A DNA stretch of 64,000 bases. Origin: an uncultured Actinomycetota bacterium (GTDB taxonomy: Bacteria > Actinomycetota > Actinomycetes > Propionibacteriales > Nocardioidaceae). Position numbers and translations under genes: made by a program. The stretch is taken from NCBI GenBank assembly GCA_963709685.1, contig CAVPXH010000020.1, positions 79,838-143,837 of the forward strand. The letters run 5' to 3'. Numbering within the stretch: the stretch's first letter is position 1; every line of letters starts with the position of its first letter. Below, piece after piece: positions 8,188 to 30,119 of this stretch. A model generated the notes under the pieces. That model saw only the letters and a program-made list of their open reading frames with translations, did no database searches and was not told where the DNA came from.

Positions 8188-8218
8188 GTGCGGCAGGGCG
8201 ACCCCCGCCCTGCCGCAC
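8188..8218 (+). terminator. Perfect 13-bp hairpin between SBP and permease (attenuator or mRNA stabiliser)
   Basis: GTGCGGCAGGGCG-acccc-CGCCCTGCCGCAC; no U-tract. Confidence 0.6.
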
Positions 8219-8239
8219 CCGGACCGGTAGGACCCAGCC

Positions 8240-9614: not shown

Positions 9615-10333
9615 TCATCGTGAAGGACCTCCACAAGAAGTTCGGCGGCAACGAGGTGCTCAAAGGCATCGACTGCCACGTCGACGAGCAGGAGGTGGTC
9701 TGTCTCATCGGGCCGTCCGGCTCCGGCAAGAGCACGCTGCTGCGCTGCCTCAACGGTCTGGAGTCGATCACCTCGGGATCCGTGATGGTGAACGGCCACG
9801 AGCTGACCCACGGCAGGACCGACATCAACGCGGTGCGCCGCGAGGTCGGGATGGTCTTCCAGCACTTCAACCTCTTTCCGCACCTGAAGGTCGTCGACAA
9901 CGTGATGCTCGCGCCGATGAAGGTGCTCAAGACCTCGAAGGACGAGGCCCGCGAGCGGGCGCTGGCGCTGCTGGGCAAGGTGGGGCTCGCCGACAAGACC
10001 CATGCCTACCCGAGCAGCCTGTCGGGCGGGCAGCAGCAGCGGGTCGCGATCGCCCGGGCGCTTGCCATGAACCCCGCGCTGATGCTCTTCGACGAGCCCA
10101 CCTCGGCGCTGGACCCGGAGATTGTCGGGGAGGTGCTGACCGTCATGAAGGACCTGGCCCGTGAGGGCATGACGATGGTCGTGGTCACCCACGAGATGGG
10201 CTTCGCCCGGGAGGTGGCCGACCGTGCGATCTTCATGGATGGTGGTGTCGTCGTCGAGGAGGGGCCGCCCTCGCAGGTCTTCGGCGAGCCCCAGCACGCC
10301 CGGACACGCGACTTCCTGAGCAAGGTGCTGTGA
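9611..10333 (+). CDS. Amino-acid ABC transporter ATP-binding protein (GlnQ type)
   Basis: ATG at 9611 within ORF 8972; [35 protein letters not shown] and VVTHEMGFA. Confidence 0.93.
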
Positions 10334-11535: not shown

Positions 11536-11599
11536 ATCCACCGAGACTCAGCGGGCACCGACCATCACCGACTCACCACCGACCCACGAGGAGGATGGC

Positions 11600-13962: not shown

Positions 13963-14705
13963 GCGGGTGCGACGGGCTGGTAGCCCTGGTCACCGGTGGT
14001 GCTTCGGGCATCGGCCAGGCGGCGGCCGCAGCGCTTGGCCGCGAGGGCGCCCGGGTTGCCGTGCTGGACCGAGACCCCGCCGACGAGTCGGAGGGGATGC
14101 TGGCCGTGCGGGCCGACGTCACCGACGACGCCTCCGTGCGGGCCGCGGTGGACGCGGTGGTCGACCGGTTCGGCCGGCTCGACGTCCTGGTCAACAACGC
14201 AGGGGTGGGCGCCCAGGGCGGGGTCGAGGACAACGACGACGGCGAGTGGGTGCGCGTCCTGGACGTGAACCTGCTCGGAATGGTGCGGGTGACCCGCGCC
14301 GCCCTGCCGCACCTGCGCCGCTCGCCCTGCCCGGCCATCGTGAACACCGCGTCGGTCGCGGCCGAGGTGGGCCTGCCGGAGCGGGTGCTCTACAGCGCCA
14401 GCAAAGGCGCGGTCGTCGCAGCCTCGCGGGCCATGGCCGCGGACCTGATCGCCGAGGGCATCCGCGTCAACTGCGTGAACCCGGGCACCGCGGACACGCC
14501 CTGGATCGGCCGGCTTCTGTCCCGGGCCGACGACCCGGCGGCGGAAAGGGCGGCGCTGGAGGCACGGCAGCCGCACGGGCGGCTGGTCTCCGCCGACGAG
14601 GTGGCCGCGGCGATCTGCGCGCTGGCCGCGCCGGGCGCCGGCTCCATCACGGGGACCTGCCTCACGGTCGACGGTGGGCTGACCGCGCTGCGGCTGCCGC
14701 GCTGA
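13959..14705 (+). CDS. SDR oxidoreductase (2-keto-3-deoxy-L-fuconate dehydrogenase-like)
   Basis: GTGA overlap; TGGASGIG, NNAG, YSASKG, IRVNCVNPGTADTPW and ARQPHGRL. Confidence 0.85.
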   Translation: MSGCDGLVALVTGGASGIGQAAAAALGREGARVAVLDRDPADESEGMLAVRADVTDDASVRAAVDAVVDRFGRLDVLVNNAGVGAQGGVEDNDDGEWVRVLDVNLLGMVRVTRAALPHLRRSPCPAIVNTASVAAEVGLPERVLYSASKGAVVAASRAMAADLIAEGIRVNCVNPGTADTPWIGRLLSRADDPAAERAALEARQPHGRLVSADEVAAAICALAAPGAGSITGTCLTVDGGLTALRLPR

Positions 14706-14910
14706 GCGGGCGCTGAGCGGCGTGCCCGCACCACCCGGTGGGCGTGCCGGTGCGGAGCGGAAGGCCGCCCGGTGCGGGGCGGCACCTCGCCAGACGCCCG
14801 AGTTGCGGGGTTCACGCGTCTCGGAAGTAAACCGGAAGTCGGGCACGGTCCATCGGAATCACATATGATCAATACGTAGTCGCGCCATTCTCGAAAGCAG
14901 AGGTCCTCCC

Positions 14911-15642
14911 GTGTCGACGAAGTCAAGCTCCCCGGCATCCGAGTCAGGGGCCGCCGTCAGCAAGGTCTACACGGCCCTGCGCATGCCGATCGTCGACGGC
15001 GAGATCGCACCCGGAACGCGCATCAACATCGACGCCGTCGCGCGTGACCTGGGCGTCTCGCAGACTCCGGTGCGCGAAGCGCTGCAGCGGCTGGAAGCCG
15101 ACGACCTCCTGGTCTACACACCCGGCCGCGGCTACCGCACCACGCCCATGCTCGATCTCGCCGGCCTGCGGTCGGTCTTCGAGTTCCGGTTGCTGGTGGA
15201 GCCGTGGGCGGCGAGGACGGCGGCCAGCGACCGGCTCGCGAACCCGGCCACGGCCCTCGACGAGGAGATCGGCTCCTTCGAGCGCGTGGCACACGCGGGC
15301 GGGGACGTGCGCCAGCAGATGCTCACCCACGACACCCGGTTCCACGACATGATCCTCGCCGCGGCCGGTAACGAGGTGGTGCGCCATGCCTACTCGCAGA
15401 CGCACTGCCACCTCCACGTCTTCCGTCTCTACCCGGTCGACGTCGACGGCGCGCTCACCATCACCGAGCACCGCACCATCTGGGAGGCGGTCAAGGCCGG
15501 CGACCCGAACGCGGCCGAGGAGGCCATGGCCGAGCACATCAGGAACTCCTACCAGCGCTCGGCACGGGCCTTCGACGGCCGCGCGCCGGAGGTGGAGACG
15601 CTGGCGCGCACCGGGAGCACCCGGGCGCGCGAGGTCGACTGA
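14911..15642 (+). CDS. GntR-family transcriptional regulator with FCD domain
   Basis: ARDLGVSQTPVREALQRL HTH; FCD features FHDMI and AMAEHI. Confidence 0.9.
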   Translation: MSTKSSSPASESGAAVSKVYTALRMPIVDGEIAPGTRINIDAVARDLGVSQTPVREALQRLEADDLLVYTPGRGYRTTPMLDLAGLRSVFEFRLLVEPWAARTAASDRLANPATALDEEIGSFERVAHAGGDVRQQMLTHDTRFHDMILAAAGNEVVRHAYSQTHCHLHVFRLYPVDVDGALTITEHRTIWEAVKAGDPNAAEEAMAEHIRNSYQRSARAFDGRAPEVETLARTGSTRAREVD

Positions 15643-15702: not shown

Positions 15703-17499
15703 TCAGTGGTTGTGCCGGGGGACACCCTTGGTCTGGGCGACTCGCTGGTAGGCCACCGCCGGTTCCAGCACCATCCCGGTGGACATCTGACCGACCATCG
15801 AGCGCTGGATCTCCTGCCACGGCGTCTGCGACTCCGGCACGGGGAACGGCGTCTCGTCGAGCTGCGCGCGGCGGGCGGCCAGCTCGGCCTCGTCGAGGAG
15901 CACGTCCGCGCGGCCCCGGTCGAGGTCGATGCGCACCGTGTCCCCGGTGCGCAGCAGCGCCAGCCCGCCGCCCACCGCTGCCTCCGGGGAGGCGTTGAGG
16001 ATGGAGGGAGAGCCGGAGGTGCCCGACTGGCGCCCGTCGCCGACGCAGGGCAGCGCGTGGACCCCCTTCCTGATCAGGTCGGCGGGGGGCTGCATGTTCA
16101 CCACCTCCGCGGCGCCGGGGTAGCCGACCGGCCCGTTGCCCCGGATGAACAGCACGCAGCCGTCGTCGATACCGAGCTCCGGGTCGTCGATGCGACGGTG
16201 GTACTCCTCGGGGCCGTCGAAGACGACGGCCCGGCCCACGAAGCAGTTCGGGTGATCGGCGTCGGACAGGTACCGCTCGCGGAACGCCGGTGAGATGACG
16301 CTGGTCTTCATGATCGCGCTGTCGAAGAGGTTCCCGGTGAGGACGACGAAGCCGGCGTCCGGGGCGAGCGCGTCGGCGAAGGCGCGGATGACGACGCCGT
16401 CGGGCGCGGTGTCGCGGCAGTTCTCCCCGAGGGTGCGGCCGTTGACGGTCATCGCCCCCTCATGGATGAGGCCGTGGCGCATCAGCTCGTGAACCACGGC
16501 CGGCACGCCGCCGGCGCGGTGGTACTCCTCGCCGAGGTACTGGCCGGCCGGCTGCACGTCCACGAGCAGCGGCACGTGGTGCCCGAGGCGCTGCCAGTCC
16601 TCGACCTCGAGGGGCACACCGACGTGGCGGGCGATCGCGTTGACGTGGATCGGGGCGTTGGTCGAGCCGCCGATCGCCGAGTTCACCACCACCGCGTTCT
16701 CGAACGCCTCGCGGGTGAGGATGTCCGAGGGCTTGAGGTCCTCGGAGACCATCTCCACGATCCGTCGGCCGGTCAGGTAGGCGACGCGGGCGCGGTCGCG
16801 ATGCGGGGCCGGGATGGCGGCAGAACCGGGCAGGCTCATGCCGAGCGCCTCCGCGAGCCCGTTCATCGTGGACGCCGTACCCATCGTGTTGCAGTGCCCG
16901 GGCGACGGCGCCGAGGAGGCGACCAGCTCGACGAACTCGGCGTCGTCGATCTCGCCGGCCGCCAGCATCTCCCGGGCCTTCCACACGATCGTGCCCGAGC
17001 CGGTCCGGTTCCCGTCGTGCCAGCCGTTGAGCATCGGGCCGCCGGACAGCACGATCGCGGGAATGTTCACCGTGGCCGCGGCCATCAGGCACGCCGGCGT
17101 CGTCTTGTCGCAGCCGGTGGTGAGCACCACGCCGTCGAGCGGGTACCCGTGGAGCACCTCCACCAGCCCGAGGTAGGCCAGGTTCCGGTCGAGCGCAGCG
17201 GTGGGACGGCGTCCGGTCTCCTGGATCGGGTGCACCGGGAACTCGAAGGCGATCCCGCCCATCTCCCGGATGCCTTCCCGGACGCGGTCGGCGAGCTGCA
17301 GGTGGTGGCGGTTGCACGGGGACAGGTCGGAGCCGGTCTGGGCGATGCCGATGATCGGCTTGCCCGACTGCAGCTCCTCCCGGGTCAGCCCCCAGTTCAT
17401 GTAGCGCTCGATGTAGAGAGCGGTCATCCCGGGGTTCTCCGGATTGTCGAACCACTCCTGGCTGCGCAGCCGGCGGCGGTCTGGTGTCTGCCCGTTCAT
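15703..17499 (-). CDS. IlvD/Edd-family sugar-acid dehydratase (L-arabinonate/D-xylonate dehydratase type)
   Basis: [45 protein letters not shown] and NASPEAA. Confidence 0.9.
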
Positions 17500-17561: not shown

Positions 17562-18431
17562 TCAGTCCTCGAACCCGAGGCGCACGAGCGCCGCGGACAC
17601 GTCGTAGGTCACGGGAGGGGGCAGGAGCGGCGGGCGCACGGTCCCCATCCCGACGCCGTGCCGCGCCTGCGCGAGCCGCTTGAGCAGTCCCGGTGCGGCG
17701 TACTCCTTGGTCATGGCCCGCACCGCGCGCAGGTGGGTGGAGAGCCGCTCGGCTCGTGCGGTCTCACCGTCTCGCACCCGCCGGTGCAGCTCCACGACGT
17801 GCTCGGGAACGATGTTCGCGAGCGCTGAGATGCCGCCGTCGGCGCGCGGCAGCCGCCCCGGCAGGTCGTCCTCCGTGCCGAGCAGAACGCCCTGGCCGGC
17901 CGCCCGGACGGTGGCGGAGTAGCCAGCGTCTCCCGCTGAGTCCTTCACGCCCCACAGCGGCAGCGAGGTCACCACCTCGGCGGGGACGGGGACCGCGTAC
18001 TTGGGGATGTGGTAGGCCAGCACGGGATGCCGGGAGACCTCGAGGACTCGCTCGTAGAAGCGGCGCAGGCCCTCCGGCTCCACGGGCTTGAAGTAGTACG
18101 GCGGGAGCACCAGTACCGCGGTGACCGGCAGGTCACCGAGACGTGCCAGCAGCTTCACCGAGTCGGGAAGGTTGCCCTCGGCGACCGTGGGAAGCAGGCC
18201 GATGCCGAGATCCGCCTCGGCCAGCGCCTCGAGCACCCGGATCTTCTCCTCGGTGCCGACCGAGGGTCCCTCGCCGTTGGTACCGAACGGCACCACCCCG
18301 TCCACACCCTGGTCAGCAAGCCAGCGCACGTGCGCGCAGTAGGCCTCCACGTCGAGCGTGCGGTCCGCGTCGTCACGGAACGGGGTCACGTTGGCGGCGT
18401 AGACGCCACCGAGCGGATGGGGCACGGTCAT
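17562..18431 (-). CDS. DHDPS/NanA-family aldolase or dehydratase (KDG aldolase-like)
   Basis: ATG at 18431; [23 protein letters not shown] and GVKDSAG (Schiff-base Lys). Confidence 0.85.
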
Positions 18432-19390
18432 CTCCCGAGCTGGGTGGTGTCGGACATGAAGTGGGCGAGCTCCTCGGCGGACGGCAGGCCCTCGTAGTCG
18501 CCGAGCGTGGTCACGCACAGCGCGCCCATCGCGTTGGCGAGCCGAAGTCGCTCCTCCGGGCCGGCGCCGCGCAGCAGTCCGGCGAGGTAGCCGGCGGCGA
18601 AGGCGTCTCCCGCACCGATCGGGTCCACCTGCTGCACGGCGAAGGGCGCGCCTTCCCAGCGCTCGCCGTCACTCCAGAGGGTGGCACCGTCACGACCTCG
18701 CTTGACGACCACCTCCCGCGGCCCCGCCTCGCCGAGCCGGCGCACCGTCTTCTCCTCGTCGTGCCAGTCCCACAGCACCTCGGCCTCCTCCACGCTGACG
18801 AACAGCACGTCGACGTGCGGCAGCACGGTCTGCACGGCGGCACGTGCCTCGGCGGGCCCCCACAGGCGGGAGCGGTAGTTCACGTCGAAGCTCACCTGGA
18901 CGCCGTGGCGGTGCGCCTCCTGCGCGGCCCAGGTGACGAAGTCGGCGCAGTCCGGGGACAGGGCCGGCGTCACACCGCTGAGATGCAGGAACCTGGCGCC
19001 CTCCAGGCAGCGGAGGTCCAGGCCACCGGGGGCGAGCGTCGAGGCGGCGGAGCCCGCGCGGTAGTAGTACACCCGCACCTGCCCGGCGACCTCCTCGCGG
19101 AAGTACAGCCCCGTGGGCCGCCGCGCGACCCGGCGGACGGCGCTGGTGTCCACGCCCTCGGCGCGGATCCGGTCGAGGACCAGGTGTCCCGGCTCGTCGT
19201 CGCCGAGCAGGCCGGCCCAGGCCGACCGGACCCCGAGCCGGGCCAGCGCGATGGCGACGTTCGACTCGGCTCCGCCGGTCTTCAGCAGCACCGAGGGTGT
19301 GTGCCGCAGCCGCCCGGGCGCAGGCGGCACGGCCAGCATCATGCTCTCGCCGATGCACACCACGGCGGGGCTCGAGTCCAGCACGCTCAT
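18428..19390 (-). CDS. kdgK: PfkB-family sugar kinase (2-keto-3-deoxygluconate kinase-like)
   Basis: CIGESM, GGAESNVA, YYRAGSAAS, FDVNYRSRLW and DPIGAGDAFAAG. Confidence 0.8.
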   Translation of the reverse strand: MSVLDSSPAVVCIGESMMLAVPPAPGRLRHTPSVLLKTGGAESNVAIALARLGVRSAWAGLLGDDEPGHLVLDRIRAEGVDTSAVRRVARRPTGLYFREEVAGQVRVYYYRAGSAASTLAPGGLDLRCLEGARFLHLSGVTPALSPDCADFVTWAAQEAHRHGVQVSFDVNYRSRLWGPAEARAAVQTVLPHVDVLFVSVEEAEVLWDWHDEEKTVRRLGEAGPREVVVKRGRDGATLWSDGERWEGAPFAVQQVDPIGAGDAFAAGYLAGLLRGAGPEERLRLANAMGALCVTTLGDYEGLPSAEELAHFMSDTTQLGR

Positions 19391-20657
19391 CCGGCTGCTT
19401 GCGGCAGCCACAGCACGAGCTGCGGGAGCGCGAGGAGAAGCACGAGCACACCCAGCAGCGCCAGGTAGAACGGCGGCATCCGGCGCAGCAGGTCGCCCAT
19501 GGAGACCCGGCCGACCGCGCAGCCGACGTAGAGCACCGTGCCCACGGGGGGCGTGATCAGCCCGATCCCCAGGACCAGCGACATGATCACGCCGAAGTAG
19601 ACCGCCGGCACCCCGACGCTCGTGGCGATCGGCGCCATGATCGGGGCCAGGATCACCATGGCCGGGGTCAGGTCCATCACCACGCCCACCACCAGCAGGA
19701 GCAGGCACATCAACCCCAGCACCACGTAGGGCGAGGAGGAGATCCCGTTGACCGCGTGACGAGGTGCGAGGGCACCTGTGCGGTGGTGAGCAGAAACGCG
19801 ACCGACATGGCCATCGCCAGCAGGAACAGCACCATGCCGGTGGTGCGGCCGGTCCGGATGAGGATCGGCCACAGCTGCCGTGGGTGGATCTCGCGGTAGA
19901 TCAGCATCGAGACGATCAGCGAGTAGGCCACGGCGGCCACGGCGGCCTCGGTGGCGGTGAAGACGCCGCCGAGGATGCCGCCCACGATGATGACGGGCAG
20001 GATGAGCGCGAGGATCGCGCCCCGGAAGGACACCCACAGCTGGCGTAGCGAGAAGGGCTGGCGGATGGCCGCGGAGGAGCGGCGGGCGGTCAGGAACGTG
20101 GTGACCATCAACGCCAGGCCGACGAGGATGCCCGGCACGATGCCGGCGATGAACAGCTCGCTGATCGAGGTGTTGGTGACGATGCCGTAGAGGATCAGCG
20201 GGATCGACGGCGGGATGATGATGCCGATGACCGCGGCCGAGACGGTGATGGCGGTGGCGTGACCGGCGGTGTAGCCCTCCCGCTTCATGGACGGGATCAT
20301 CATGCCCCCGATCGCGGAGGCGTCCGCGACGGCGGACCCGCTGATGCCGCCGAAGAACATCGACGCGGCGACGTTGACCTGGCCCAGGCCGCCCGAGATG
20401 AAGCCGACCAGCGCCTGCGCGAACGCGACGAGCCGCCGGGCCAGTCCGCCCGTGCTCATCAGCTCCCCGACGAGGACGAAGAACGGGATGGCCAGCAGGG
20501 GGAAGCTGTTGACGCCACGCACCGCCTGCTCGACGAGCACTGCCGTGTTGGCGTCCATCACGACCAGCAGCACCAGGGAGGAGAGGCCGAGCGCGAAGGA
20601 GACGGGGATGCCGATCGCGATGGCCGCGAAGAGCACGCCGAGGAAGATCCACAGCAT
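19387..20657 (-). CDS. dctM: TRAP transporter large permease DctM, frameshifted near 19757
   Basis: LLAIPFFVLVGELM, FFGGISGSAVADA, IIPPSIP and TATEAA in ORF 19710..20657; GLITPPVG C-terminus in the adjacent frame. Confidence 0.9.
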
Positions 20658-20660
20658 GAG

Positions 20661-21257
20661 TCAGTCCTCCTGTGCGCTGTGCGCTGCGGCCGGGCGGACG
20701 GCCACGGCGATGCGGTAGACGGTGATGAGCCCGATCATGACCGCGGCGACCGGGACGGCGGCGGTGTAGAGGTTGTAGGGCACGTTCAGCAGCGGGGTGT
20801 TCCCCGGCGAGGTCGACATCACGTCGCGGGCGCCCAGCAGCAGTGCCCCCATCAGTGCCAGCACCAACAGCTCCTGGACCACGGTCAGGGCGCGGCGGCC
20901 GCGCTCGGGCAGCCGCTCGATCAGCGTGTCGACGACGATGTGCTCGCGGTGAAGGTGTGCCAGCCCGGCGCCGAGGAAGATCACCCAGACGAACAGCAAC
21001 CGGGCCAGCTCGTCGGAGACGGCGAGCGACTTGTCCAGCACGAACCGGCCGAACACGTTGACCCCGACGGCGACGATGAGCACCACGAGCAGGGTGACCA
21101 TCACGGTCTTGAGGCTGAAGTCGAGAACCCGGAAGAAGCGGGGCAGGGCCGCGAGGCGCTGCCGGTCCTGCGCGGCGAACTCCTCGGGGCTGCCCGGGTC
21201 GCCCAGCGAGGGCGACTCCTCGGGGCCGGCGCTGTCCGCCGTTGTCGTGGTCTCCAT
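20661..21257 (-). CDS. dctQ: TRAP transporter small permease DctQ
   Basis: ATG at 21257; four TM segments; ELARLLFVWVIFLGA and HIVVD. Confidence 0.88.
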   Translation of the reverse strand: METTTTADSAGPEESPSLGDPGSPEEFAAQDRQRLAALPRFFRVLDFSLKTVMVTLLVVLIVAVGVNVFGRFVLDKSLAVSDELARLLFVWVIFLGAGLAHLHREHIVVDTLIERLPERGRRALTVVQELLVLALMGALLLGARDVMSTSPGNTPLLNVPYNLYTAAVPVAAVMIGLITVYRIAVAVRPAAAHSAQED

Positions 21258-21331: not shown

Positions 21332-22477
21332 TCAGCCCTGGGCTTCCTTCTGGACCTGGGCGACCAGGTTCTTGCCGATCTTCGGCGCCCACTTGTCGTA
21401 CACGGGCTGGACCGCCTTGCGGAAGGCAGCCATCTGCGACGGCGACAGGTCGTTGATCTTCATGCCCTTGTCCTTCAGCTGCTGCTTGGCGTAGTCGCTG
21501 AACTCTCGGCTGACCTTGCGCTCGTAGTCGCGTGCCGAGTAGGCGGCCTGCTGGACGATCTGCTGGTCCTGGGGGCTGAGGCTGTTGAAGAACTTCTCGC
21601 CGATCATGATGATGAAGGGCGAGTAGACGTGCCGGGTGTCCGAGGCGTACTTCTGCACCTCGTAGAACTTCGAGGTCAGGATCGTGTTCCAGGGGTTCTC
21701 CTGGCCGTCCACGACGCCCTGCTGCAGGGCGCTGAAGACCTCGCCGAACGCCATCGAGGTCGGGTTCGCGCCGAGCGTCTTCCAGATGTCGACCTGGATC
21801 GGGTTCTCCATCACGCGGATGGCCAGGCCCTTGACGTCGGCCGGAGAGGTCACCGGCCGCTTGTCGTTGGTCAGCTCGCGGTAGCCGTTCTCCGAGAAGG
21901 CGAGGGCCTTGATGCCCGAGCCCTTGAAGCTGTCGAGCATCTTCTGGCCGATCGGTCCGTCGAGCACCTTGTCCGCCGACTGCGGCGTGGGGAACAGGAA
22001 CGGCAGGTCGAACAGGGAGAGCTGCGGAACGATGCTCGCGGCCGGAGACGTGGAGGGATACGTCATCTCCAGGGTCCCGGACTGGAGCGCCGACATCATC
22101 TGGTTGTCGTCACCGACGGCGCTGTCGGTGAAGATCTTGACCTTCAGGCGGCCGTTGGTCCGCTTGTCCAGGATGTTCTTGAAGTACTCCACCGAGAGCT
22201 CCTGCGGTGAGCCCTTGGACAGGCCGATGCCGAACTTGATGGTGTGCGAGTCGCCGTTGGCGACCACGCTGCCCTTGATCGGAGGCGGGTCCGAGAGCTG
22301 AGGACCGCTGGCACTGCTGCTGCCGCTGTCGTTGCTGTTCCCCGAGCCCCCGGAGCCGCCCGAGCTCCCGGCGGCCTGGTTGCTGTTGAAACCGCCGCCG
22401 CACGCGGCGAGCATCGTGGCGCCGGCGGCCAGCAGGGTGATCCGGGCGACTGCCGCCCGTGCCCTGGTCTTCCTCAT
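21332..22477 (-). CDS. dctP: TRAP transporter substrate-binding lipoprotein DctP
   Basis: Lipobox MLAAC, Gly/Ser linker, ENGYRELTN, GLAIRVME, GEVFSALQQGVVDGQENP and FYEVQKY. Confidence 0.92.
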   Translation of the reverse strand: MRKTRARAAVARITLLAAGATMLAACGGGFNSNQAAGSSGGSGGSGNSNDSGSSSASGPQLSDPPPIKGSVVANGDSHTIKFGIGLSKGSPQELSVEYFKNILDKRTNGRLKVKIFTDSAVGDDNQMMSALQSGTLEMTYPSTSPAASIVPQLSLFDLPFLFPTPQSADKVLDGPIGQKMLDSFKGSGIKALAFSENGYRELTNDKRPVTSPADVKGLAIRVMENPIQVDIWKTLGANPTSMAFGEVFSALQQGVVDGQENPWNTILTSKFYEVQKYASDTRHVYSPFIIMIGEKFFNSLSPQDQQIVQQAAYSARDYERKVSREFSDYAKQQLKDKGMKINDLSPSQMAAFRKAVQPVYDKWAPKIGKNLVAQVQKEAQG

Positions 22478-22781: not shown

Positions 22782-23987
22782 GTGAGTCCCCGGGTCGTTG
22801 CGCTCGAGACGGTGCGTCCGCGTATCCAGCCGAACGTGCTGTTCCTGCGGCTGCACACCGACGACGGCCTCATCGGTCTCGGGGAGTCGTTCTTCGGTGC
22901 ACGCACCGTCGAGGCGTACCTGCACGAATCGGTCGCCGAGGTCCTGTTCGCCTGCGCCGACCCGACTCCGGAGCGGGTCGCAGCCATGCTCCGTCCCTAC
23001 GTCGGCTACCAGGGTGCCGGCGCGGAGGTGCGAGGGAACGCCGCGGTCGACCTCGCCCTGTGGGACCTGCTCGGGCAGCGGGCCGAACTCCCGCTCGCCC
23101 GCCTGCTCGGCGGCCCGGTCCGCGACCGCGTCCCCGTCTACAACACCTGCGCAGGCAGCGCCTACGTCAGCACCTCCACCCGGCAGGAGTCCGCGAACTG
23201 GGGACGTGACGGCTCCCGCGGGCGACGGTACGACGACCTGGACGCCTTCCTCGAGCGCCCCGGACAGCTGGCCCGCGAGCTGTGGGACGAGGGCATCCGG
23301 GGCATGAAGGTCTGGCCCTTCGACCGCGCCGCCGAGCGGTCCGGCGGCACCGACATCAGCCGCGACGAGGTCGCGCGCGGCACCGCGGTGCTGGAGGCGG
23401 TGCGGGAGGAGGTCGGCGAGGACATGCGCCTGATGGTCGAGCTCCACGGGCTGTGGGATCGCCGGTGTGCCACCCTCCTGTGCGACGCGGTTGCGCCGTA
23501 CCGGCCGTTCTGGGTGGAGGACCCGATGCGGCCCGACGCCGTCGAGGGGCTGGCCCGGTTACGGGAGGACGTCGACGTCACGCTCGCCACCGGGGAGACC
23601 TGCGTCGGTCGACGGGGCTTCGCGCCCCTGCTCGCGCGCGGTGCGCTCGACGTGGCCACCGTGGACCTGCTCTGGTCGGGAGGGTTGACCGAGGCGCGCA
23701 AGGTCGCCGCCTTCGCCGACACTTTCGGAGTCTCCGTCGCCCCGCACGACTGCACCGGGCCGGTGGCCCTCGCGGCCTGTTGCCACCTCGTGCTCAGCCA
23801 GCCCAACGGGCTGATCCAGGAGACGGTGCGGGCCTTCCTGCGCACCTGGTACGGCGAGCTCGTCGAGGGCCTGCCGGCGGTGACCGACGGCACCGTCGGC
23901 CTCGTCGACACGCCGGGCCACGGCGTGCGACTACGCGAGGGGCTCCTCGACGGCGACCAGGTGGAGACCTCGGTCTCCCGGCCGTGA
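22782..23987 (+). CDS. Mandelate racemase/muconate lactonizing family sugar-acid dehydratase
   Basis: GLGESF, AVDLALWDLLG, VYNTCAG, KVWPF, MVELH, WVEDP, GET and PHDC. Confidence 0.85.
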   Translation: MSPRVVALETVRPRIQPNVLFLRLHTDDGLIGLGESFFGARTVEAYLHESVAEVLFACADPTPERVAAMLRPYVGYQGAGAEVRGNAAVDLALWDLLGQRAELPLARLLGGPVRDRVPVYNTCAGSAYVSTSTRQESANWGRDGSRGRRYDDLDAFLERPGQLARELWDEGIRGMKVWPFDRAAERSGGTDISRDEVARGTAVLEAVREEVGEDMRLMVELHGLWDRRCATLLCDAVAPYRPFWVEDPMRPDAVEGLARLREDVDVTLATGETCVGRRGFAPLLARGALDVATVDLLWSGGLTEARKVAAFADTFGVSVAPHDCTGPVALAACCHLVLSQPNGLIQETVRAFLRTWYGELVEGLPAVTDGTVGLVDTPGHGVRLREGLLDGDQVETSVSRP

Positions 23988-24025
23988 GCGCACACGCTCC
24001 TCATCCCCGACCACAAGGAGAAGAG

Positions 24026-24907
24026 ATGAACCTCGACGACTCGTTCGACCTGCTTGCGGAGCTGGGCTACTCCCGTGCTGTCGCCCTCACCGACTCGGCG
24101 TCCCGTTTCCCCGGCGGTGACGCCTGGCGGGTGGAGATCCCCAGCTGTGAGGGTCCGGCCGTGATGGCAGCGGTGGTCGAGGAGGCCGACCGCCGTGGCG
24201 TCCCCGTCCATCGGATCTCGCAGGGGAGCGGGGTGATGATGCTGACGGACGCGGAGATCACCCGCATGGTGGAGCTCGGGCACGAGCGGGACATCGAGGT
24301 CTGCCTCTTCCTCGGTCCCCGCGGGGCCTGGGACACCGGAGGGCAGGCCAAGGTCTCGGCCGCCGCCGGCGCGGCGGCGCGGGGCAGCCGTGCGGTGGCG
24401 GCCTGTCTGTACGACGCCTTCCGCGCCGTCGACCTCGGCGTGCGCAGCCTGCTCGTGGGTGACCTCGGGGTGCTCCGCCTGCTGCGCCGGCTCAAGGACG
24501 AGGGCCGCCTGCCCGCGGACCTGGCCCTCAAGACCTCGGTGATGATGCCGCTCACCAACGCTCCGACGGCGACCCTCTACGAGGAGGCGGGGGCGACGAG
24601 CCTGAACGTGTCCACCGACCTCGAGCTCGCCACCCTGGCCGAGATGCGCGCTGCCACCTCCGTGCCGCTCGACATGTACGTCGAGGTGCCCGACGACCAG
24701 GGGGGCAGCGTGCGCTTCTTCGACGTGCCCGACGTCGTGCGGGTCGCCGCGCCCGTCTACCTCAAGATGGGCCTGCGCAACGCGCCGAACATCTACCCGA
24801 CCGGGGCACACCTCGCGGACCTCGCGATCGCCCTGGGTCGTGAGCGAGTCCGCCGCGCCGAGCTGGTGCTGCAGCTGCTTCGTGCCGGACGAGGGGACGC
24901 GTCGTGA
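24026..24907 (+). CDS. Uncharacterised protein, peptidase-U32-like TIM-barrel family
   Basis: RBS AAGGAG and ATG at 24026; RVEIPSCEGP, VHRISQGSG, LFLGPRGAWD and DMYVEVPDDQGG resemble a conserved family often labelled U32 (recalled). Confidence 0.65.
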   Translation: MNLDDSFDLLAELGYSRAVALTDSASRFPGGDAWRVEIPSCEGPAVMAAVVEEADRRGVPVHRISQGSGVMMLTDAEITRMVELGHERDIEVCLFLGPRGAWDTGGQAKVSAAAGAAARGSRAVAACLYDAFRAVDLGVRSLLVGDLGVLRLLRRLKDEGRLPADLALKTSVMMPLTNAPTATLYEEAGATSLNVSTDLELATLAEMRAATSVPLDMYVEVPDDQGGSVRFFDVPDVVRVAAPVYLKMGLRNAPNIYPTGAHLADLAIALGRERVRRAELVLQLLRAGRGDAS

Positions 24908-26289
24908 GCCGAGCGGCTCGCGCGCCCGTCGTCCTCGACCTGGTGTCCCGGCTCGGCGAGAAGCAGGTGGTCACCGACCGGGACGTCCTCGAGTCCGCCC
25001 GGCACGACCGGGCGACGTACTGCCCGGCCGGGGAGCCGCTGGTGCTGGTGCGCCCGACCTCCACCGAGCAGGTGCAGCAGGTGGTCCTGCTGGCCCGCGA
25101 GCACCGGGTCCCGCTCGTCACGCAGGGCGCGCGCACCGGACTGTCCGGTGCCGCCAACGCCGTGGACGGTTGTGTGCTGCTGTCCACGCAGCGGCTGAAC
25201 CGGATCCTCGAGGTCGACGCGGACGACATGGTGGCGGTCGTGCAGCCCGGCGTGGTGAACGCGGCGTTGTCACGGGCAGTCGCCGAGCGGGGACTGTTCT
25301 ACCCGCCCGACCCCTCGTCGTGGGAGGAGTCCACCATCGGGGGCAACGTGGCCACCAACGCGGGCGGGCTGTGCTGCGTGAAGTACGGCGTGACCGCCGA
25401 CTTCGTGCGCGGCCTCGAGGTGGTGCTGGGCACCGGCGACATCGTGCGTACCGGCCGGCGCACGGTCAAGGGAGTCGCCGGCTACGACCTGACCAGGCTG
25501 GTCGTCGGGTCGGAGGGCACGCTGGGCGTGGTGACCGAGGTGACCCTCGCGCTGCGCCCTGCCGCGGAGACGGCCCTCACCGCGGCCGCCACCTTCCGCC
25601 GCGGCGAGGACGCGCTGCGCGCGGCCGCGGCGGTCATGGCCGCGGGCCTGCGCCCGTCGCTGCTGGAGTTCGTCGACGGCACCACGGCCCGCGCCATCCA
25701 GGCCGTGCGTGACATGGGGCTGCCCGAGGACGTCGGCGGCCTGCTCCTGGCGCAGTCGGACCGCGGCGACCGCGCCGCCGAGGATGTCCGCCGGATCGCG
25801 TCGATCTGCCTCGCCGAGGGCGCCGTGGACGTGGCCGAGGCCGCCGATGCGGAGGAGTCCCGGATGCTCCTGGAGGCGCGGCGCCTGGTGAACGCCGGGC
25901 TCGAGACCCTGGGGGCGACGCTCGTCGATGACGTCGCCGTGCCACGGTCCCGGCTCGCGGAGCTGCTGCGCGGCATCGAGCGGATCGCGGAGGAGACCGG
26001 CGTCCTGGTCGCCTGCCCGGGGCACGTCGGCGACGGGAACATGCACCCGACGGTGATCATCGATCGCGACGATCCGAACTCCGGAGCGCGCGGGGTGCGC
26101 GCCTTCGACGCGATCATGGAGCTCGGCCTCCGACTCGGCGGCACGATCACCGGTGAGCACGGCGTCGGCATGCTCAAGCGGGACTGGCTCGAACGGGAGC
26201 TGGGCGTCACGAGCGCGGCCCTGCACCGAGAGCTGCGTCGGGTCTTCGACCCCTCCGGCGTGCTCAACCCCGGCAAGGTCCTGGCCTGA
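24904..26289 (+). CDS. FAD-linked oxidase (GlcD / D-lactate dehydrogenase family)
   Basis: GARTGLSG, PPDPSS, TIGGNVATNAGG, VGSEGTLG, GDGNMHP, GEHGVG and LNPGK. Confidence 0.88.
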   Translation: MSRAARAPVVLDLVSRLGEKQVVTDRDVLESARHDRATYCPAGEPLVLVRPTSTEQVQQVVLLAREHRVPLVTQGARTGLSGAANAVDGCVLLSTQRLNRILEVDADDMVAVVQPGVVNAALSRAVAERGLFYPPDPSSWEESTIGGNVATNAGGLCCVKYGVTADFVRGLEVVLGTGDIVRTGRRTVKGVAGYDLTRLVVGSEGTLGVVTEVTLALRPAAETALTAAATFRRGEDALRAAAAVMAAGLRPSLLEFVDGTTARAIQAVRDMGLPEDVGGLLLAQSDRGDRAAEDVRRIASICLAEGAVDVAEAADAEESRMLLEARRLVNAGLETLGATLVDDVAVPRSRLAELLRGIERIAEETGVLVACPGHVGDGNMHPTVIIDRDDPNSGARGVRAFDAIMELGLRLGGTITGEHGVGMLKRDWLERELGVTSAALHRELRRVFDPSGVLNPGKVLA

Positions 26290-26427: not shown

Positions 26428-27456
26428 ATGAAATCAACCCAGATCCGCCTTGCCGCCCGCCCCGTCGGAGAGCCCGACGACAGCTGCTTCGAGACCACCA
26501 CCGTCGACCTGCCCGACCTGAGCGACGGCCAGGTCCTGCTGCGCGTGGTCTACCTCTCCCTGGACCCCTACATGCGCGGCCGGATGAGCGCCGCGAAGTC
26601 CTACGCCGCCCCGGTGGAGGTCGGCGACGTGATGGTCGGCGGCACGGTCGCCGAGGTGGTCGAGTCGCGCAGCGAGAAGGTCGCGGCCGGTGACCTGGTG
26701 CTGTCCTACTCCGGCTGGCAGAGCCACGCGGTCGCCGACGAGAACGCGGTCCGGCGCCTCGACCCGGCCGAGGCCCCGGTCTCCACCGCGCTGGGCGTGC
26801 TCGGCATGCCGGGCTTCACCGCCTACGCCGGGCTGCTCGAGATCGGCAAGCCGAAGGAGGGCGAGACCGTCGCGGTCGCGGCCGCGACCGGCCCGGTCGG
26901 CTCCGCGGTGGGACAGATCGCCAAGGTGAAGGGCGCCCGCGCGGTCGGCATCGCCGGCGGCCCGGAGAAGGTGCGCGCGCTCACCGAGGAGTTCGGCTTC
27001 GACGTGGCGCTCGACCACCGCGCGCCCGACTTCAAGGAACAGCTGCGAGAGGCCGTGCCGGACGGGATCGACGTCTACTTCGAGAACGTCGGCGGCCCGG
27101 TGGCCGACGCGGTGTTCGGCCTGCTCAACAAGTACGCCCGGGTCCCGGTCTGCGGCCTGGTCGCCAACTACAACGCCACCTCCGCGCCCGAGGGGCCGGA
27201 CCGGCTGCCCGGGTTCATGGGGCAGGTGCTGTCCAAGAGCCTGACCATCCGCGGCTTCATCCAGGACGAGTTCTCCCGCTCGCACGGCGCGGACTTCCGC
27301 CGGGACATGCCGGGCTGGGTCCGGGAGGGCAAGGTGCGCTACCGCGAGGACGTCGTCGAGGGCCTGGAGCACGCGCCCGAGGCGTTCCGCGGCATGCTGC
27401 GCGGCGCCAACTTCGGCAAGCTGCTCGTCCGGGTGGGGGACGACCCCACCCGCTGA
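26428..27456 (+). CDS. NADP-dependent alkenal/ene reductase (CurA/YncB type, MDR family)
   Basis: YLSLDPYMRGRM, LGMPGFTAYAGL, AATGPVGS, YFENVGG and NFGKLLV. Confidence 0.9.
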   Translation: MKSTQIRLAARPVGEPDDSCFETTTVDLPDLSDGQVLLRVVYLSLDPYMRGRMSAAKSYAAPVEVGDVMVGGTVAEVVESRSEKVAAGDLVLSYSGWQSHAVADENAVRRLDPAEAPVSTALGVLGMPGFTAYAGLLEIGKPKEGETVAVAAATGPVGSAVGQIAKVKGARAVGIAGGPEKVRALTEEFGFDVALDHRAPDFKEQLREAVPDGIDVYFENVGGPVADAVFGLLNKYARVPVCGLVANYNATSAPEGPDRLPGFMGQVLSKSLTIRGFIQDEFSRSHGADFRRDMPGWVREGKVRYREDVVEGLEHAPEAFRGMLRGANFGKLLVRVGDDPTR

Positions 27457-27517
27457 GCCGTGCGGGGCGGTCCCGCCGGGCCTACTCGGGGTTCGGCGCG
27501 TGTGGCAGGCTCGGACA

Positions 27518-28581
27518 ATGCCGCAGATCCTCGCTGCTCGGGGCAGGCTGCCCGCCCACAAGTCGACCCAGGACGAGGTCACGCGCGTCTTCGGTGACCT
27601 CATCGTCACCGGAGACGGGCTGGACCGCCGCCTGCTGCACCGGCTGCACGCGAACGCCGGGGTGAGCTCGCGGCACACCGCGCTGCCGTTGGAGGAGTAC
27701 GGCGCGCTCGAGGACTTCGGCCAGGCCAACGACGCGTTCCTCGACGTCGCGGTGGACCTCGGCGCCGAGGCCGTGCGTGACCGCCCTGGAGGCGGCCGGC
27801 CTCACCGCGCGCGACGTCGACCTGGTGGTCTCCACGACGATCACCGGTCTCGCCGTACCCTCCCTCGAGGCCCGGCTGGCCCCGCGCGTGGGCTGGCGGC
27901 CGGACGTGAAGCGGGTGCCCCTGGTCGGGCTCGGCTGCCTGGCCGGGGCGGCCGGGGTCGCCCGCGTGCACGACTACCTGCTCGGCCATCCCCGCGACGT
28001 CGCCGTGCTGCTGTCGGTGGAGCTGTGCTCGCTGACCGTCCAGCGCGGCGACACGTCGGTGGCCAACCTGGTGGCCAGCGGGCTGTTCGGCGACGGTGCC
28101 GCCGCGGTCGTCGTGGTCGGCGAGGACCACCCGCTGGCCGCGGCCGGGCCGCGCACGCTGGACACCCGAAGCCGCCTCTACGCCGACACCGAGCGGGCGA
28201 TGGGCTGGGACGTCGGCGCCACCGGCCTGAAGATCGTGCTCGGCGCGGAGGTGCCCGGGCTGGTCGAGGAGTACGTCGCCGAGGACGTCGACGGCTTTCT
28301 CGCCGGGCACGGGCTCACTCGCGACGACATCGGCTGGTGGGTGTGCCACCCCGGAGGCCCCAAGGTGCTCGAGGCGCTGCAGTCGGCGCTCGGCCTCGCA
28401 CGCGACGACGTCGGGCTCACCTGGGAGTCGCTGGACCGCATCGGCAACCTGTCCTCGGCCTCGGTGCTGTTCGTGCTCGAGGACACGCTCGCGACTGCGC
28501 CCGCCGGCGCCAGGCTCCTACGGGATGCTGATGGCGATGGGGCCCGGGTTCAGCCTCGAGATGGTGCTGCTGCAGGCATGA
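27518..28581 (+). CDS. Type III polyketide synthase (SrsA/BpsA-like), frameshifted near 27780 and 28500
   Basis: Catalytic triad motifs LGCLAG, HPGGPKVL and GNLSSAS, plus LFGDGAAA; C-terminal AMGPGFSLEMVLL in a third frame ending at the ATGA overlap. Confidence 0.88.
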
Positions 28582-29110
28582 GCAGCCTCGCGGCGTTCAC
28601 CGTGCTGGTCGGGCTCGTCGGCCTCGAGCGGCTGGCCGAGCTCGTGGTGTCCCGGCGCAACGCCGCGTGGAGCCTGGCGCGCGGCGGTGTCGAGCACGGC
28701 CGCGGCCACTACCCGCCGATGGTGGTGCTGCACACCGGCCTGCTGGTCGGGGCGCTGGTGGAGGCGTGGGTACGTCGACCCGCGGTGCCGGCCGCGCTGG
28801 CGTGGAGCATGCTCGTGCTCGTCGTCCTCGCCCAGGCCCTGCGGTGGTGGTGCATCCGCACGCTCGGGCCGCAGTGGAACACCCGGGTGATCGTCGTACC
28901 CGGTCTGGGGCTGGTCGCGCGCGGGCCGTACCGTCTGCTCCGCCACCCCAACTACGTCGCCGTGGTCGTCGAGGGCTTCGCGCTGCCTCTCGTGCACGCC
29001 GCGTGGATCACCGCGTGGTGTTCACGGTCCTCAACGCGGTGCTGCTGCGGGTGCGGATCCGCACCGAGGACGCAGCCCTTCGCGGCCTGTCGGCGCACGG
29101 CGCGTCATGA
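28578..29110 (+). CDS. Isoprenylcysteine carboxyl methyltransferase family protein (SrsB/BpsB-like), frameshifted near 29015
   Basis: RLAELVVSRRN, EHGRGHYPPMVVLH, LGPQWNTRV, GPYRLLRHPNY, then LLRVRIRTED in a shifted frame. Confidence 0.88.
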
Positions 29111-30119
29111 CCGACCTGCTGGTCGTCGGCGGCGGTCCGGCGGGGCTGGCCGACGGCGCTGTACGCGGCCCGCGCCGGCCTGCGGCGGTGGTGGTGGAGC
29201 CGCGGCCCGGCGCCGTCGACAAGGCCTGCGGGGAGGGGCTGATGCCGGCGGCCGTCGCGGCGCTGCGCGGACCTCGGCGTCGACCCCGTCGGGAGTGCCG
29301 TCGCCGGCATCCGCTACCTCGCGGCGACGCGGCCGCCGAGGCGCGGTTCGCGCGCGGCCGCGGGCGGGGGGTGCGCCGTACGACGCTGCACGCCGCGCTG
29401 CGCGAGGCCGTGGCCGCGGCCGGCGTGGCGGTCGGGCCGCGCGCGGGGGCGAGGTCGCGCAGGACGCCGCCGGCGTCACGGTCAACGGCATACGGGCCGG
29501 GCACCTGCTGGCCGCCGACGGCCTGCACTCGCCGGTGCGCCGCCGGCTCGGCCTCGACGTACCGCCCGGCCACCCGGCGCGCGTTCGGGCTGCGCGCGCA
29601 CCTGCGGACCCCGCCGTGGTCGTCGCTGGTCGAGGTGCACTGGGGCCGGCCGCCGAGGCGTACCTCACCCGGTCGGCGCCGGACCTCGTCGGCGTCGCGG
29701 TGCTGACGTCGCGGCGCGCGACTTCGAGGAGCACCTGAGGTCGTTCCCCTGGCTGCGCGAGCGGGTGGCCGGCGTGCCGCGGACCCCCGTGCGCGGCGCC
29801 GGCCCGCTGCGGCAGCGGTCCGCCCGGCGCGTGGCGGGCCGGGTGCTGCTGGTCGGGGACGCGGCGGGTACGTCGACGCGCTCACCGGCGAGGGCATCGC
29901 GCTGGCGCTGGCGCAGGCCCGGGAGGCGGTCGCCGCGGTGGCCGCCGGACGACGCGGCCTACGAGGCGGCGTGGTGGCGGGTGACGCCGGCGCTACCGGT
30001 GGATGACGCACGCCCTGCTGGCCGCGAGCCGGGTGCCGCCGGCGCGGCGGTCGCTGGTGCCGCTCGCCTGCGCGGCCCCGCCGCTGTTCCGTGCCGCGGT
30101 CAACGCGCTCGCCGGCTGA
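29107..30119 (+). pseudogene. FAD-dependent monooxygenase (SrsC-like) with many indels (real decay or sequencing error)
   Basis: DLLVVGGGPAGL, DKACGEGL, GVRRTTLH, AADGLHSPVRR and LLVGDAAG-YVDALTGEGI are recognisable only by switching frames several times. Confidence 0.75.

Follow-up and report, generated by a model that had tools for sequence, protein, structure and literature searches.

We identified a 293-aa protein, here called U32L, in a stretch of 64,000 nucleotides (the window) from an uncultured bacterium of the Actinomycetota (contig CAVPXH010000020.1, assembly GCA_963709685.1). It represents a genuine, widespread, and uncharacterized family whose genomic context is informative, and a literature search found no paper describing that family. 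The best explanation is that U32L is a soluble enzyme with a predicted (beta/alpha)8 barrel, a cysteine-less side branch of the U32 proteins that would act in non-phosphorylative catabolism of aldonic or other sugar acids. Sugar-acid catabolism is the probable role of the family. Judged by sequence, U32L stands at the edge of PF01136 and outside the known aldolase, lyase, and isomerase families; we class it as an iron-sulfur (Fe-S)-free variant of the U32 barrel. The pathway around it (transporter, dehydratases, kinase, aldolase) is of a known kind. An earlier note on this DNA had pointed to an undescribed carbon-skeleton enzyme in a possibly new sugar-acid pathway. The family is indeed undescribed and the context is one of sugar acids, but the reaction is still at the level of a proposal.

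The U32L gene lies at 24026..24907 on the plus strand. It starts with ATG, has no internal stop, and is preceded by a Shine-Dalgarno-like AAGGAG (24016..24021, plus strand, read directly) 4 nt 5' of the start codon. Its TGA stop overlaps the GTG start (24904) of the next open reading frame (ORF), which encodes a flavoenzyme, in the tetranucleotide GTGA; translation and reading of the sequence agree with the earlier note on both the ORF and the overlap. GC content by codon position is 0.76/0.49/0.91, and the flanking genes show the same pattern. More than 4100 homologs at E<=1e-3 were found among 8000 candidates examined, many with 70-85% identity, and an exhaustive search of 50%-identity representatives returned 917 clusters at E<=1e-3, with 113 of these reaching E<=1e-30. 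U32L is therefore a genuine coding gene and not a chance ORF. A promoter and terminator scan of the region returned no sites and is uninformative in 72% GC DNA. No public sequencing runs that include the region are listed.

Species-representative genomes searched with two peptide motifs of the close clade, whose members are 70-85% identical across genera, yielded 457 encoding stretches, mostly in Kribbella. Other hosts of this clade are Blastococcus, Geodermatophilus, Nocardioides, Ornithinimicrobium, and uncultured Actinomycetota. The megaplasmid of Thermomicrobium roseum carries a more distant U32L, TRD_RS11835 (53% identity). A homolog with 31% identity is encoded on an Enterobacter chuandaensis plasmid (NZ_CP097174.1, 81015-81953; locus L087), in a biosynthetic-looking cluster that includes a phosphotransferase, an NAD(P) oxidoreductase, an aminotransferase, two 'iron-containing redox enzyme' genes, an M14 peptidase, a major facilitator superfamily (MFS) transporter, and a nucleotidyltransferase. 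Because this cluster differs, the U32L family extends beyond sugar-acid catabolism. Some gene calls join U32L to SnoaL, RraA-like, or PfkB segments; these apparent fusions are on short contigs, look like merged calls, and were not used as evidence.

The relationship to U32 proteins is distant. The single Pfam match, to Peptidase_U32 (PF01136), scores 32.8 bits against a curated cut-off of 22.4, and spans residues 134-219 and only positions 11-90 of the 233 in the model (about a third); Pfam returned nothing else at E<=0.01. Close relatives fall below the cut-off, for example the Kribbella flavida ortholog Kfla_6629, which scores 21.4. No NCBIfam model matched. Searches of the PDB by sequence, with the single protein or with a family profile, gave nothing better than E=0.18; that value was reached by the family profile and only with the U32 protein Mk0906, across barrel strands 4 to 7. 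Database entries for family members are named 'hypothetical protein' or 'U32 family peptidase'.

U32 'oxidases' bind a [4Fe-4S] cluster through four essential cysteines in the pattern CX6CX15CX3C (PMC11574389). This pattern, even when relaxed, is absent from the 39 close and 34 diverse family members sampled, among which no cysteine column is conserved and some proteins have no cysteine at all. U32L itself has only C41, C93, and C127, the three scattered cysteines of the earlier note, and the lack of a cluster motif that the note observed extends to every relative sampled. In an alignment with Escherichia coli UbiU and UbiV, strands 4 to 7 align with UbiU residues 39-164, and the part of UbiU that comes after strand 7, EVFAFGSLCIMSEGRC, is paired with the cysteine-free DMYVEVPDDQGGSVR of U32L. 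By this alignment, the Fe-S loop of UbiU is replaced in U32L by an acidic, glycine-rich loop. The profile-profile comparison with UbiU and UbiV had a probability of <1% and served solely to place the cysteine motif. The earlier note had allowed for a match to a characterized Fe-S U32 hydroxylase; none was found, and we rejected that identity because the cysteines are not in the right places. Contexts differ as well. The Fe-S U32 oxidases (UbiU/UbiV, TrhP, RlhA) hydroxylate quinones or RNA, whereas U32L stands among genes of aerobic sugar-acid catabolism, and the genome loci described below have no ubiT-like or RNA-modification neighbors, which argues against hydroxylation that is prephenate-dependent and O2-independent.

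An AlphaFold2 model built from an alignment of 39 relatives (pLDDT 83.6, pTM 0.83) has eight alternating strands and helices forming a (beta/alpha)8 barrel, with low-confidence loops at residues 103-115 and 224-226. We regard the predicted barrel fold as secure, and as having no specific structural relative. Foldseek returned 274 PDB matches at E<=1e-3, and the 50 listed are all (beta/alpha)8-barrel (TIM-barrel) enzymes. The best among the matches listed are class II fructose-bisphosphate (FBP)/tagatose-bisphosphate aldolases, Mk0906, phosphoenolpyruvate mutase/isocitrate-lyase-type enzymes, and IMPDH, with template-modeling (TM) scores of only about 0.45-0.55 and 10-16% identity (0.51-0.54 and 12-16% for the top matches, 1gvf, 3c52, and 1rvg). 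Mk0906 (5D88) has the same barrel, but its match (E=4e-6, TM 0.47/0.55) is no better than those of unrelated TIM barrels, and it does not share K169 and N194 of U32L. The relationship to HpcH/HMGL barrels that the earlier note suggested checking did not materialize: the matches are generic TIM-barrel ones with TM of about 0.5.

Conservation is concentrated at the mouth of the predicted barrel. In an alignment reaching down to 26% identity, E37, G69, G138, G189, R208, and P243 are invariant, and S24, F28, R63, G120, R133, R140, D146, G148, P163, K169, S171, N178, N194, P214, D216, G226, G227, R230, and K247 are at least 90% conserved. Two of these residues lie in acidic motifs that the earlier note had picked out, both of which are present: RVEIPS from residue 35 contains the invariant E37, and DMYVE begins at D216. 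In the model, E37, R63, D146, K169, N194, D216, and K247 are placed at the C-terminal ends of strands 1, 2, 4, 5, 6, 7, and 8, which marks the catalytic face of a TIM barrel. Polar residues in such positions would be the usual signature of a catalytic TIM barrel with an anionic ligand. The five conserved arginines (R63, R133, R140, R208, R230) suggest that the ligand carries a carboxylate or phosphate. The acidic trio would suit a metal-assisted enolate route, and the two lysines a Schiff-base route.

To describe genomic context, 80 genome loci were drawn from a genome scan with the close-clade alignment, a sample biased to Kribbella, and a metagenome scan with a second clade was added to offset this bias. 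A GlcD-like flavoenzyme gene lies within about 3 kb downstream of U32L in 79 of the 80 genome loci, in at least four cluster layouts. In the first (the window and loci L005, L006, and L062), genes for an IlvD-family dehydratase, a protein like dihydrodipicolinate synthase (DHDPS), a PfkB kinase, and a tripartite ATP-independent periplasmic (TRAP) transporter occupy one strand, and an enolase-family gene, U32L, and the GlcD-like gene run in the opposite direction. L062 lacks the enolase-family gene, which the close clade therefore does not require as a partner. In the second layout (Kribbella and relatives), a GntR gene is followed in the opposite direction by a double UxaA-type dehydratase fusion, a fumarylacetoacetate hydrolase (FAH)-family gene, an aldehyde dehydrogenase, an IlvD-family dehydratase, a LarA-like protein of 425-470 aa, U32L, and the GlcD-like gene, the last three overlapping by 4 nt. 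The third (Blastococcus/Geodermatophilus type) comprises GntR, a hot-dog protein, a MaoC hydratase, U32L, a short DHDPS-like protein, a hexapeptide-repeat protein, the GlcD-like gene, and an aldehyde dehydrogenase, and adjoins a family III CoA-transferase, a thioesterase, a TctCBA transporter, and a crotonase. In the fourth (L091), a short-chain dehydrogenase/reductase (SDR) gene is followed in the opposite direction by a fused UxaA-type dehydratase, U32L, and the GlcD-like gene, surrounded by IclR, MFS, aldehyde dehydrogenase, and FAH genes.

Directly 5' of U32L in this clade is a LarA-like protein or a (de)hydratase, the latter drawn from three families with no relationship to one another: enolase-family in the window, L005, and L006; fused UxaA-type in L091; MaoC-type in L090, a locus of the third layout; and, in Kribbella, the LarA-like gene, itself preceded by the IlvD-family gene. 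Overall, the neighbors in genome loci are IlvD/Edd, UxaA-type, and enolase-type dehydratases, FAH proteins, aldehyde dehydrogenases, 2-keto-3-deoxygluconate (KDG)-kinase-like and DHDPS-like proteins, and transporters of the TRAP, tripartite tricarboxylate (TTT), or MFS type. CoA-transferase/MaoC-hydratase clusters of the itaconate type normally encode a CitE/HpcH-type lyase, and in L090 U32L would occupy the slot expected for that enzyme. Full Pfam lists, obtained for six clusters, include no HpcH-family gene.

Two further proteins accompany U32L in these clusters. The LarA-like gene is translationally coupled 5' of U32L at L003:8589-10004 and 70 other loci. In Kribbella the protein has weak similarity to the N-terminal domain of lactate racemase (Pfam Lar_N), and a metagenome homolog (L099:1921-3192) passes both Lar_N (44.2 bits) and DUF362 (36.7 bits). 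The PDB gave no sequence match, even by profile. The LarA-like protein may be a relative of the nickel-pincer 2-hydroxyacid racemases, a relationship taken from Lar_N only. Proteins of ~910-925 aa with two tandem UxaA/GarD second plus C-terminal domains and no SAF domain head many U32L clusters (L003:1561-4332, L091:1809-4547, L092:1579-4323).

The second clade is ~41-49% identical to the window U32L and was sampled in 80 metagenome loci, of which 50 span at least 6 kb. None of the 80 has a GlcD-like gene. ORFs within five genes on either side of U32L were clustered for 72 loci and representatives were annotated by Pfam. The commonest neighbor is an enolase-family gene (21 loci, in 13 immediately downstream), and tblastn detected such a gene in 28 of the 80 loci. 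Aldehyde dehydrogenase is second (14 loci, mostly immediately upstream), followed by SDR and metallo-beta-lactamase (MBL)-fold hydrolase (10 loci each), FAH (8), IclR and GntR/FCD regulators (7 each), IlvD-family dehydratase and zinc-dependent alcohol dehydrogenase (Zn-ADH; 6 each), UxaA-type dehydratase and glycoside hydrolase family 42 (GH42) beta-galactosidase (5 each), and NAD-type D-2-hydroxyacid dehydrogenase (4). The enolase-family link and the flavoenzyme link are each clade-specific, not universal. The earlier note had tied U32L to sugar-acid genes, and among its homologs this link is strong: genome and metagenome loci share dehydratases, FAH proteins, aldehyde dehydrogenases, and transporters.

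Particular second-clade loci range from compact to elaborate. In six, an operon encodes a binding protein, two permeases, a GH42 enzyme, Zn-ADH, an MBL-fold protein, U32L, and an enolase-family dehydratase, with which it ends; the genes 3' of it are unrelated. On a path that leads from a glycoside through sugar, lactone, and sugar acid to a 2-keto-3-deoxy acid, U32L is the sole enzyme of this operon without an obvious role. Locus L099 is the opposite extreme, with genes for a TRAP transporter, LarA-like protein, IlvD-family dehydratase, IclR, FAH, aldehyde dehydrogenase, DHDPS, U32L, UxaA-type dehydratase, PfkB kinase, KDPG (2-keto-3-deoxy-6-phosphogluconate) aldolase, enolase-family protein, and 2-Hacid_dh. 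Four loci (L151, L156, L175, L177) have two-gene units of aldehyde dehydrogenase and U32L; the adjacent aldehyde dehydrogenase matches only generic aldehyde dehydrogenases in the PDB. A gene for an NAD-type D-isomer-specific 2-hydroxyacid dehydrogenase is present in L099, L103, L107, L118, L161, and L165, adjoining U32L in L118 and L161, and L161 also has an Ldh_2-family dehydrogenase. The NAD-type enzyme may be a non-homologous replacement of the flavoenzyme partner in this clade. Overall, U32L keeps company with several non-homologous kinds of hydroxy-acid enzyme (GlcD-like, NAD-type 2-Hacid_dh, Ldh_2, LarA-like).

In the window, the gene upstream of U32L (22782..23987, plus strand, ending 38 nt 5' of it) encodes a 401-aa protein of the mandelate racemase subgroup of the enolase superfamily, a putative acid-sugar dehydratase. 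Pfam (MR_MLE_N and MR_MLE_C) supports the superfamily assignment of the earlier note. All NCBIfam dehydratase equivalogs score below cut-off (best 182 versus 750), and the closest structures (2pod, 4dx3, 3dip) have generic family names only. The window protein is only 32% identical to the enolase-family neighbor of the T. roseum U32L; U32L itself is ~50% identical between clades, and so the dehydratase partner varies while U32L is conserved.

The overlapping downstream gene (24904..26289, plus strand) encodes a 461-aa FAD-linked D-2-hydroxyacid dehydrogenase of the GlcD/D-LDH family, with FAD_binding_4 (E=2.8e-43) and FAD-oxidase_C (E=7.7e-60) domains. The earlier note had called it a FAD 2-hydroxyacid oxidase; the FAD domains are as described, but quinone-type D-2-hydroxyacid dehydrogenase is the better name. 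It does not reach the cut-off of the NCBIfam glcD equivalog (422 versus 568) and is therefore not GlcD in the strict sense. A glycolate oxidase of the GlcD-GlcE-GlcF type was rejected, as no GlcE or GlcF partners are present. The closest characterized relative is PdG-D-LDH (PDB 9qgz), with 48% identity across 455 aligned columns. That enzyme, a homodimer with FAD and Fe(II), has a preference for D-lactate and reduces quinones more rapidly than O2 (PMC12724367). Its carboxylate-binding arginine, His/His/Glu metal ligands, and catalytic histidine are kept (R326, H374, H381, E418, H419). The methyl pocket differs (Y327 to N330, T338 to V341, I369 to P372, L380 to T383), and among eight U32L-linked flavoenzymes from all layouts P372 and T383 never vary, whereas either N or H occupies position 330. 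D-lactate specificity is consequently not to be assumed, and the substrate of this dehydrogenase may be more polar than lactate.

A TRAP system diverges from these genes on the minus strand, from 22477 down, as the earlier note described and Pfam confirms. DctP (21332..22477) is the solute-binding subunit, with a lipoprotein-like N-terminus and a Shine-Dalgarno site at its start. Its best solved relatives are 4p47 and, second-best, CxaP 7bbr (259 bits, E=7e-76). CxaP of Advenella mimigardefordensis binds D-xylonate, D-fuconate, D-galactonate, and D-gluconate (PMC12076931), and 7BBR contains 2-keto-3-deoxy-D-gluconate (PMC11668362). The window DctP may thus bind a sugar acid, to go by its resemblance to CxaP; the DctM gene of its cluster, in contrast to that system, has an apparent frameshift. 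DctQ, the small membrane subunit, is at 20661..21257 (Pfam DctQ; start inferred), and DctM, the large one, at 19390..20657, where Pfam DctM covers only positions 1-298 of 413. By tblastn with the intact DctM of the syntenic locus L001, residues 1-310 are in one frame and 302-423 in another, with the break near 19730-19755. The cause is either an indel in the assembly or a pseudogene, and a real break would mean that the cluster's transporter is broken.

The same minus-strand operon continues with a PfkB-family kinase (18428..19390) like 2-keto-3-deoxy-gluconate/galactonate kinases (Pfam PfkB; NCBIfam models for KDG and 2-keto-3-deoxygalactonate (KDGal) below cut-off), a DHDPS-family protein of aldolase or dehydratase type (17562..18431; Pfam DHDPS; nearest NCBIfam models dapA and archaeal KD(P)G aldolase, below cut-off), and an IlvD/Edd-family dehydratase (15703..17499; Pfam; NF009560 at 1051 bits, above cut-off; L-arabinonate dehydratase model at 528 bits, below it). 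It is tightly packed: the DctM frame runs as far as the start codon of PfkB (19390), and the ATG of the DHDPS-like gene (18431) overlaps the PfkB stop.

Past the fold and the genomic context we infer, and this applies to the substrate class, C-C cleavage, the metal or lysine role, and the hand-over to the flavoenzyme. U32L contexts share a (de)hydratase making a 2-oxo acid or hydroxyacyl-CoA and often include an aldehyde dehydrogenase and 2-hydroxy-acid enzymes. C-C cleavage is the simplest role for U32L, as it uses all three together. We tentatively propose that U32L works as a lyase that cleaves a C-C bond in a 2-oxo sugar-acid intermediate, releasing pyruvate and passing a by-product hydroxy acid to the flavoenzyme, a role we consider possible but short of probable. 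The TRAP system would import a C5 or C6 sugar acid, and the enolase-family (or IlvD-family) dehydratase would convert it to a 2-keto-3-deoxy acid. U32L would bind this 2-oxo acid with its carboxylate held by R63, R133, R140, R208, and R230, and with either a metal on E37, D146, and D216 or a Schiff base on K169 or K247. Enolate chemistry could then cleave a C-C bond to give pyruvate and a short aldehyde. The aldehyde would be oxidized to glycolate, D-lactate, or D-glycerate; a hydroxy acid could be released directly if the substrate is a 2,4-diketo form. The translationally coupled FAD D-2-hydroxyacid dehydrogenase would oxidize that hydroxy acid.

Such chemistry has parallels. Enzymes of the HpcH/HpaI-CitE group (GarL, RhmA/YfaU, citramalyl-CoA lyase) are TIM barrels that cleave a bound 2-oxo acid to pyruvate, and their genes adjoin those for acid-sugar dehydratases or for a CoA-transferase plus hydratase. 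U32L appears in the same cluster positions, by analogy only, with no sequence or Pfam relationship. Cleavage by U32L would correspond to Dahms or non-phosphorylative Entner-Doudoroff logic: the Dahms route yields pyruvate and glycolaldehyde, and Route III yields pyruvate and glycolate or lactate (PMC6336799). The co-occurring hydroxy-acid enzymes fit a hydroxy-acid co-product. FAH hydrolases and dehydratases of Routes II and III (PMC6336799) share with U32L a neighborhood of dehydratase, SDR, aldehyde dehydrogenase, and hydroxy-acid oxidation, but their fold is unrelated. The two families are not simple substitutes, because they often coexist in one cluster.

Several findings weigh against C-C cleavage. 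The likeness of U32L to aldolases in Foldseek is at the generic TIM-barrel level. For membership of the HpcH/HpaI-CitE lyases or of the DmpG-type or KDPG/DHDPS class I aldolases there was no Pfam or NCBIfam match, and no PDB profile match below E=0.18. Class II FBP/tagatose-bisphosphate aldolases have three metal-binding histidines and a catalytic Asp-His pair on barrel strands. This His triad is absent from U32L, whose only histidines (H62, H86, H262) are not among the invariant or nearly invariant columns of the wide alignment. K169 and K247 are each substituted in 2 of 34 diverse members. The window, L099, and other loci already encode DHDPS-type and/or KDPG aldolases together with a KDG-kinase-like gene, so that an extra aldolase is not obviously needed in these clusters. 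There is no aldehyde dehydrogenase gene in the immediate U32L cluster of the window; one belonging to a separate array, ~11 kb upstream, is closest. The GH42 operon could rely on kinase and aldolase genes at other sites in the genome to process its 2-keto-3-deoxy acid. The flavoenzyme substrate could be the sugar acid itself, not a cleavage product, because the pocket differs from that of the D-lactate enzyme.

The seemingly superfluous position of U32L in clusters with full dehydratase/kinase/aldolase or Weimberg sets (window, L099, Kribbella) speaks for an isomerase, epimerase, or tautomerase whose substrate would be a 2-oxo or 2-hydroxy sugar acid and whose chemistry would run through an enediolate or enolate, a function we consider rather unlikely. 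U32L might move a carbonyl, invert C3 or C4, or open or anomerize a hemiketal ring, and so feed a neighboring dehydrogenase, kinase, or aldolase; beside the D-2-hydroxyacid dehydrogenase and the LarA-like racemase/epimerase, it would let more stereoisomers enter one pathway. Its companions that act at C2 of hydroxy acids (GlcD-like, 2-Hacid_dh, Ldh_2, LarA-like) are consistent with this, as are its higher identity between clades than that of partner enolase-family proteins (~50% versus 32%) and a flavoenzyme pocket more polar than that of the D-lactate enzyme, which makes conversion of a sugar acid to a 2-ketoaldonate possible. Isomerization, however, leaves unexplained the frequent aldehyde dehydrogenase immediately upstream and the position after CoA-transferase and MaoC-hydratase genes in L090, and Foldseek found no likeness to known TIM-barrel sugar epimerases or isomerases beyond the generic fold.

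That aldehyde dehydrogenase, the second commonest neighbor and usually directly upstream on the same strand, including the Aldedh-U32L pairs, would instead suit a Weimberg-type dehydratase. U32L would then convert a 2-keto-3-deoxy acid to alpha-ketoglutarate semialdehyde (KGSA), which the adjacent dehydrogenase would oxidize to 2-oxoglutarate, as a functional analog of FAH-type XylX/KdaD or DHDPS-type AraD/KdgD; first-step dehydratases are common neighbors as well. We consider this improbable. Clusters of the Kribbella, L099, and L161 types already have FAH and/or DHDPS-type proteins with an aldehyde dehydrogenase, and the adjacent aldehyde dehydrogenase is not typed as a KGSA dehydrogenase, its PDB matches being generic. 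There would also be no role for the coupled D-2-hydroxyacid dehydrogenase, the LarA-like protein, or the MaoC/CoA-transferase context.

The overlap of the U32L and GlcD-like genes would find a direct product-to-substrate explanation if U32L were a C-C hydrolase of 2,4-diketo-3-deoxy sugar acids, yielding pyruvate and glycolate, D-lactate, or D-glycerate for the flavoenzyme to oxidize, as an analog of the FAH-type Route III hydrolase (pathway logic in PMC6336799). Locus L091 (SDR, then UxaA-type dehydratase, U32L, and GlcD-like genes in the other direction) matches the series dehydratase, 4-dehydrogenase, hydrolase, and hydroxy-acid dehydrogenase, and an SDR gene is immediately upstream of U32L in several metagenome loci. 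Many clusters, including the Kribbella type and the GH42 operon, have no SDR, however; that of the window belongs to the neighboring plus-strand array, and FAH genes often coexist with U32L. Hydrolysis seems to us improbable. A non-catalytic U32L, whether it served the flavoenzyme as an accessory or scaffold subunit or was carried along as a degenerate U32 protein or peptidase, would account for the translational coupling, the co-occurrence in 79 of 80 close-clade loci, and the U32 'peptidase' label, but it is very improbable: all 80 second-clade loci keep U32L without a GlcD-like gene, which makes a mere partner of the flavoenzyme unlikely, the 70-85% identity across genera with conservation of polar barrel-mouth residues is typical of an enzyme, and the characterized flavoenzyme homolog is active alone as a homodimer (PMC12724367).

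Returning to C-C cleavage, a broader and slightly more doubtful version is that the cysteine-less U32-like proteins are a new group of cofactor-light TIM-barrel C-C lyases or enolate-forming enzymes for 2-oxo sugar acids. They would supply a missing non-phosphorylative step in Actinomycetota, Thermomicrobium (Thermomicrobiota), and many uncultured bacteria known only from metagenome contigs, and in actinobacteria would make up a metabolic unit together with a dedicated D-2-hydroxyacid dehydrogenase. If so, binding of 2-oxo acids would be the basic property of the U32 barrel, with consequences for understanding the use of prephenate by the Fe-S U32 hydroxylases. Sugar-acid clusters have been heavily mined, yet this conserved gene has no assigned reaction. 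Assigning one would correct a widespread 'U32 family peptidase' annotation and could complete operons such as GH42/Zn-ADH/MBL/U32L/dehydratase, and U32L might offer a new aldolase or isomerase scaffold for 2-oxo-acid biocatalysis. A U32 fold that exists without an Fe-S site also helps to separate the substrate-binding from the redox features of U32 proteins.

Other genes of the window flank this region. The oxidoreductase 3' of the flavoenzyme gene (26428-27456, plus strand) exceeds the NCBIfam equivalog cut-off for the NADPH-dependent curcumin/enone reductase CurA (533.8 versus 440 bits). We rejected it as a pathway member on this basis and because it is absent from L062, and it is probably unrelated to the sugar-acid genes. 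An apparently frame-broken type III polyketide synthase follows (27500-29738, plus strand): in the ORF from 27777, the chalcone-synthase N-terminal model is matched from position 110 on, and the frame stays open into an ICMT-like methyltransferase (28563-29090). The syntenic L001 lacks this cassette. The breaks in the polyketide synthase and DctM genes suggest long-read indel errors in the assembly.

Upstream, a GntR/FCD regulator gene (14911..15642, plus strand; Pfam GntR and FCD) has the same position in L001. A second sugar-acid-like array (5957-15642, plus strand) encodes a polar-amino-acid-type ABC transporter, FAH, aldehyde dehydrogenase, SDR, and GntR/FCD proteins, and a 446-aa enolase-superfamily protein whose nearest model, below cut-off, is L-talarate/galactarate dehydratase. 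At 2838-5666 on the plus strand, a 942-aa fusion combines CCG (LutA-like), LUD (LutC-like), and 4Fe-4S (LutB/LldF-like) modules of the L-lactate oxidation system, and just passes the LutB equivalog (447 versus 444.8 bits).

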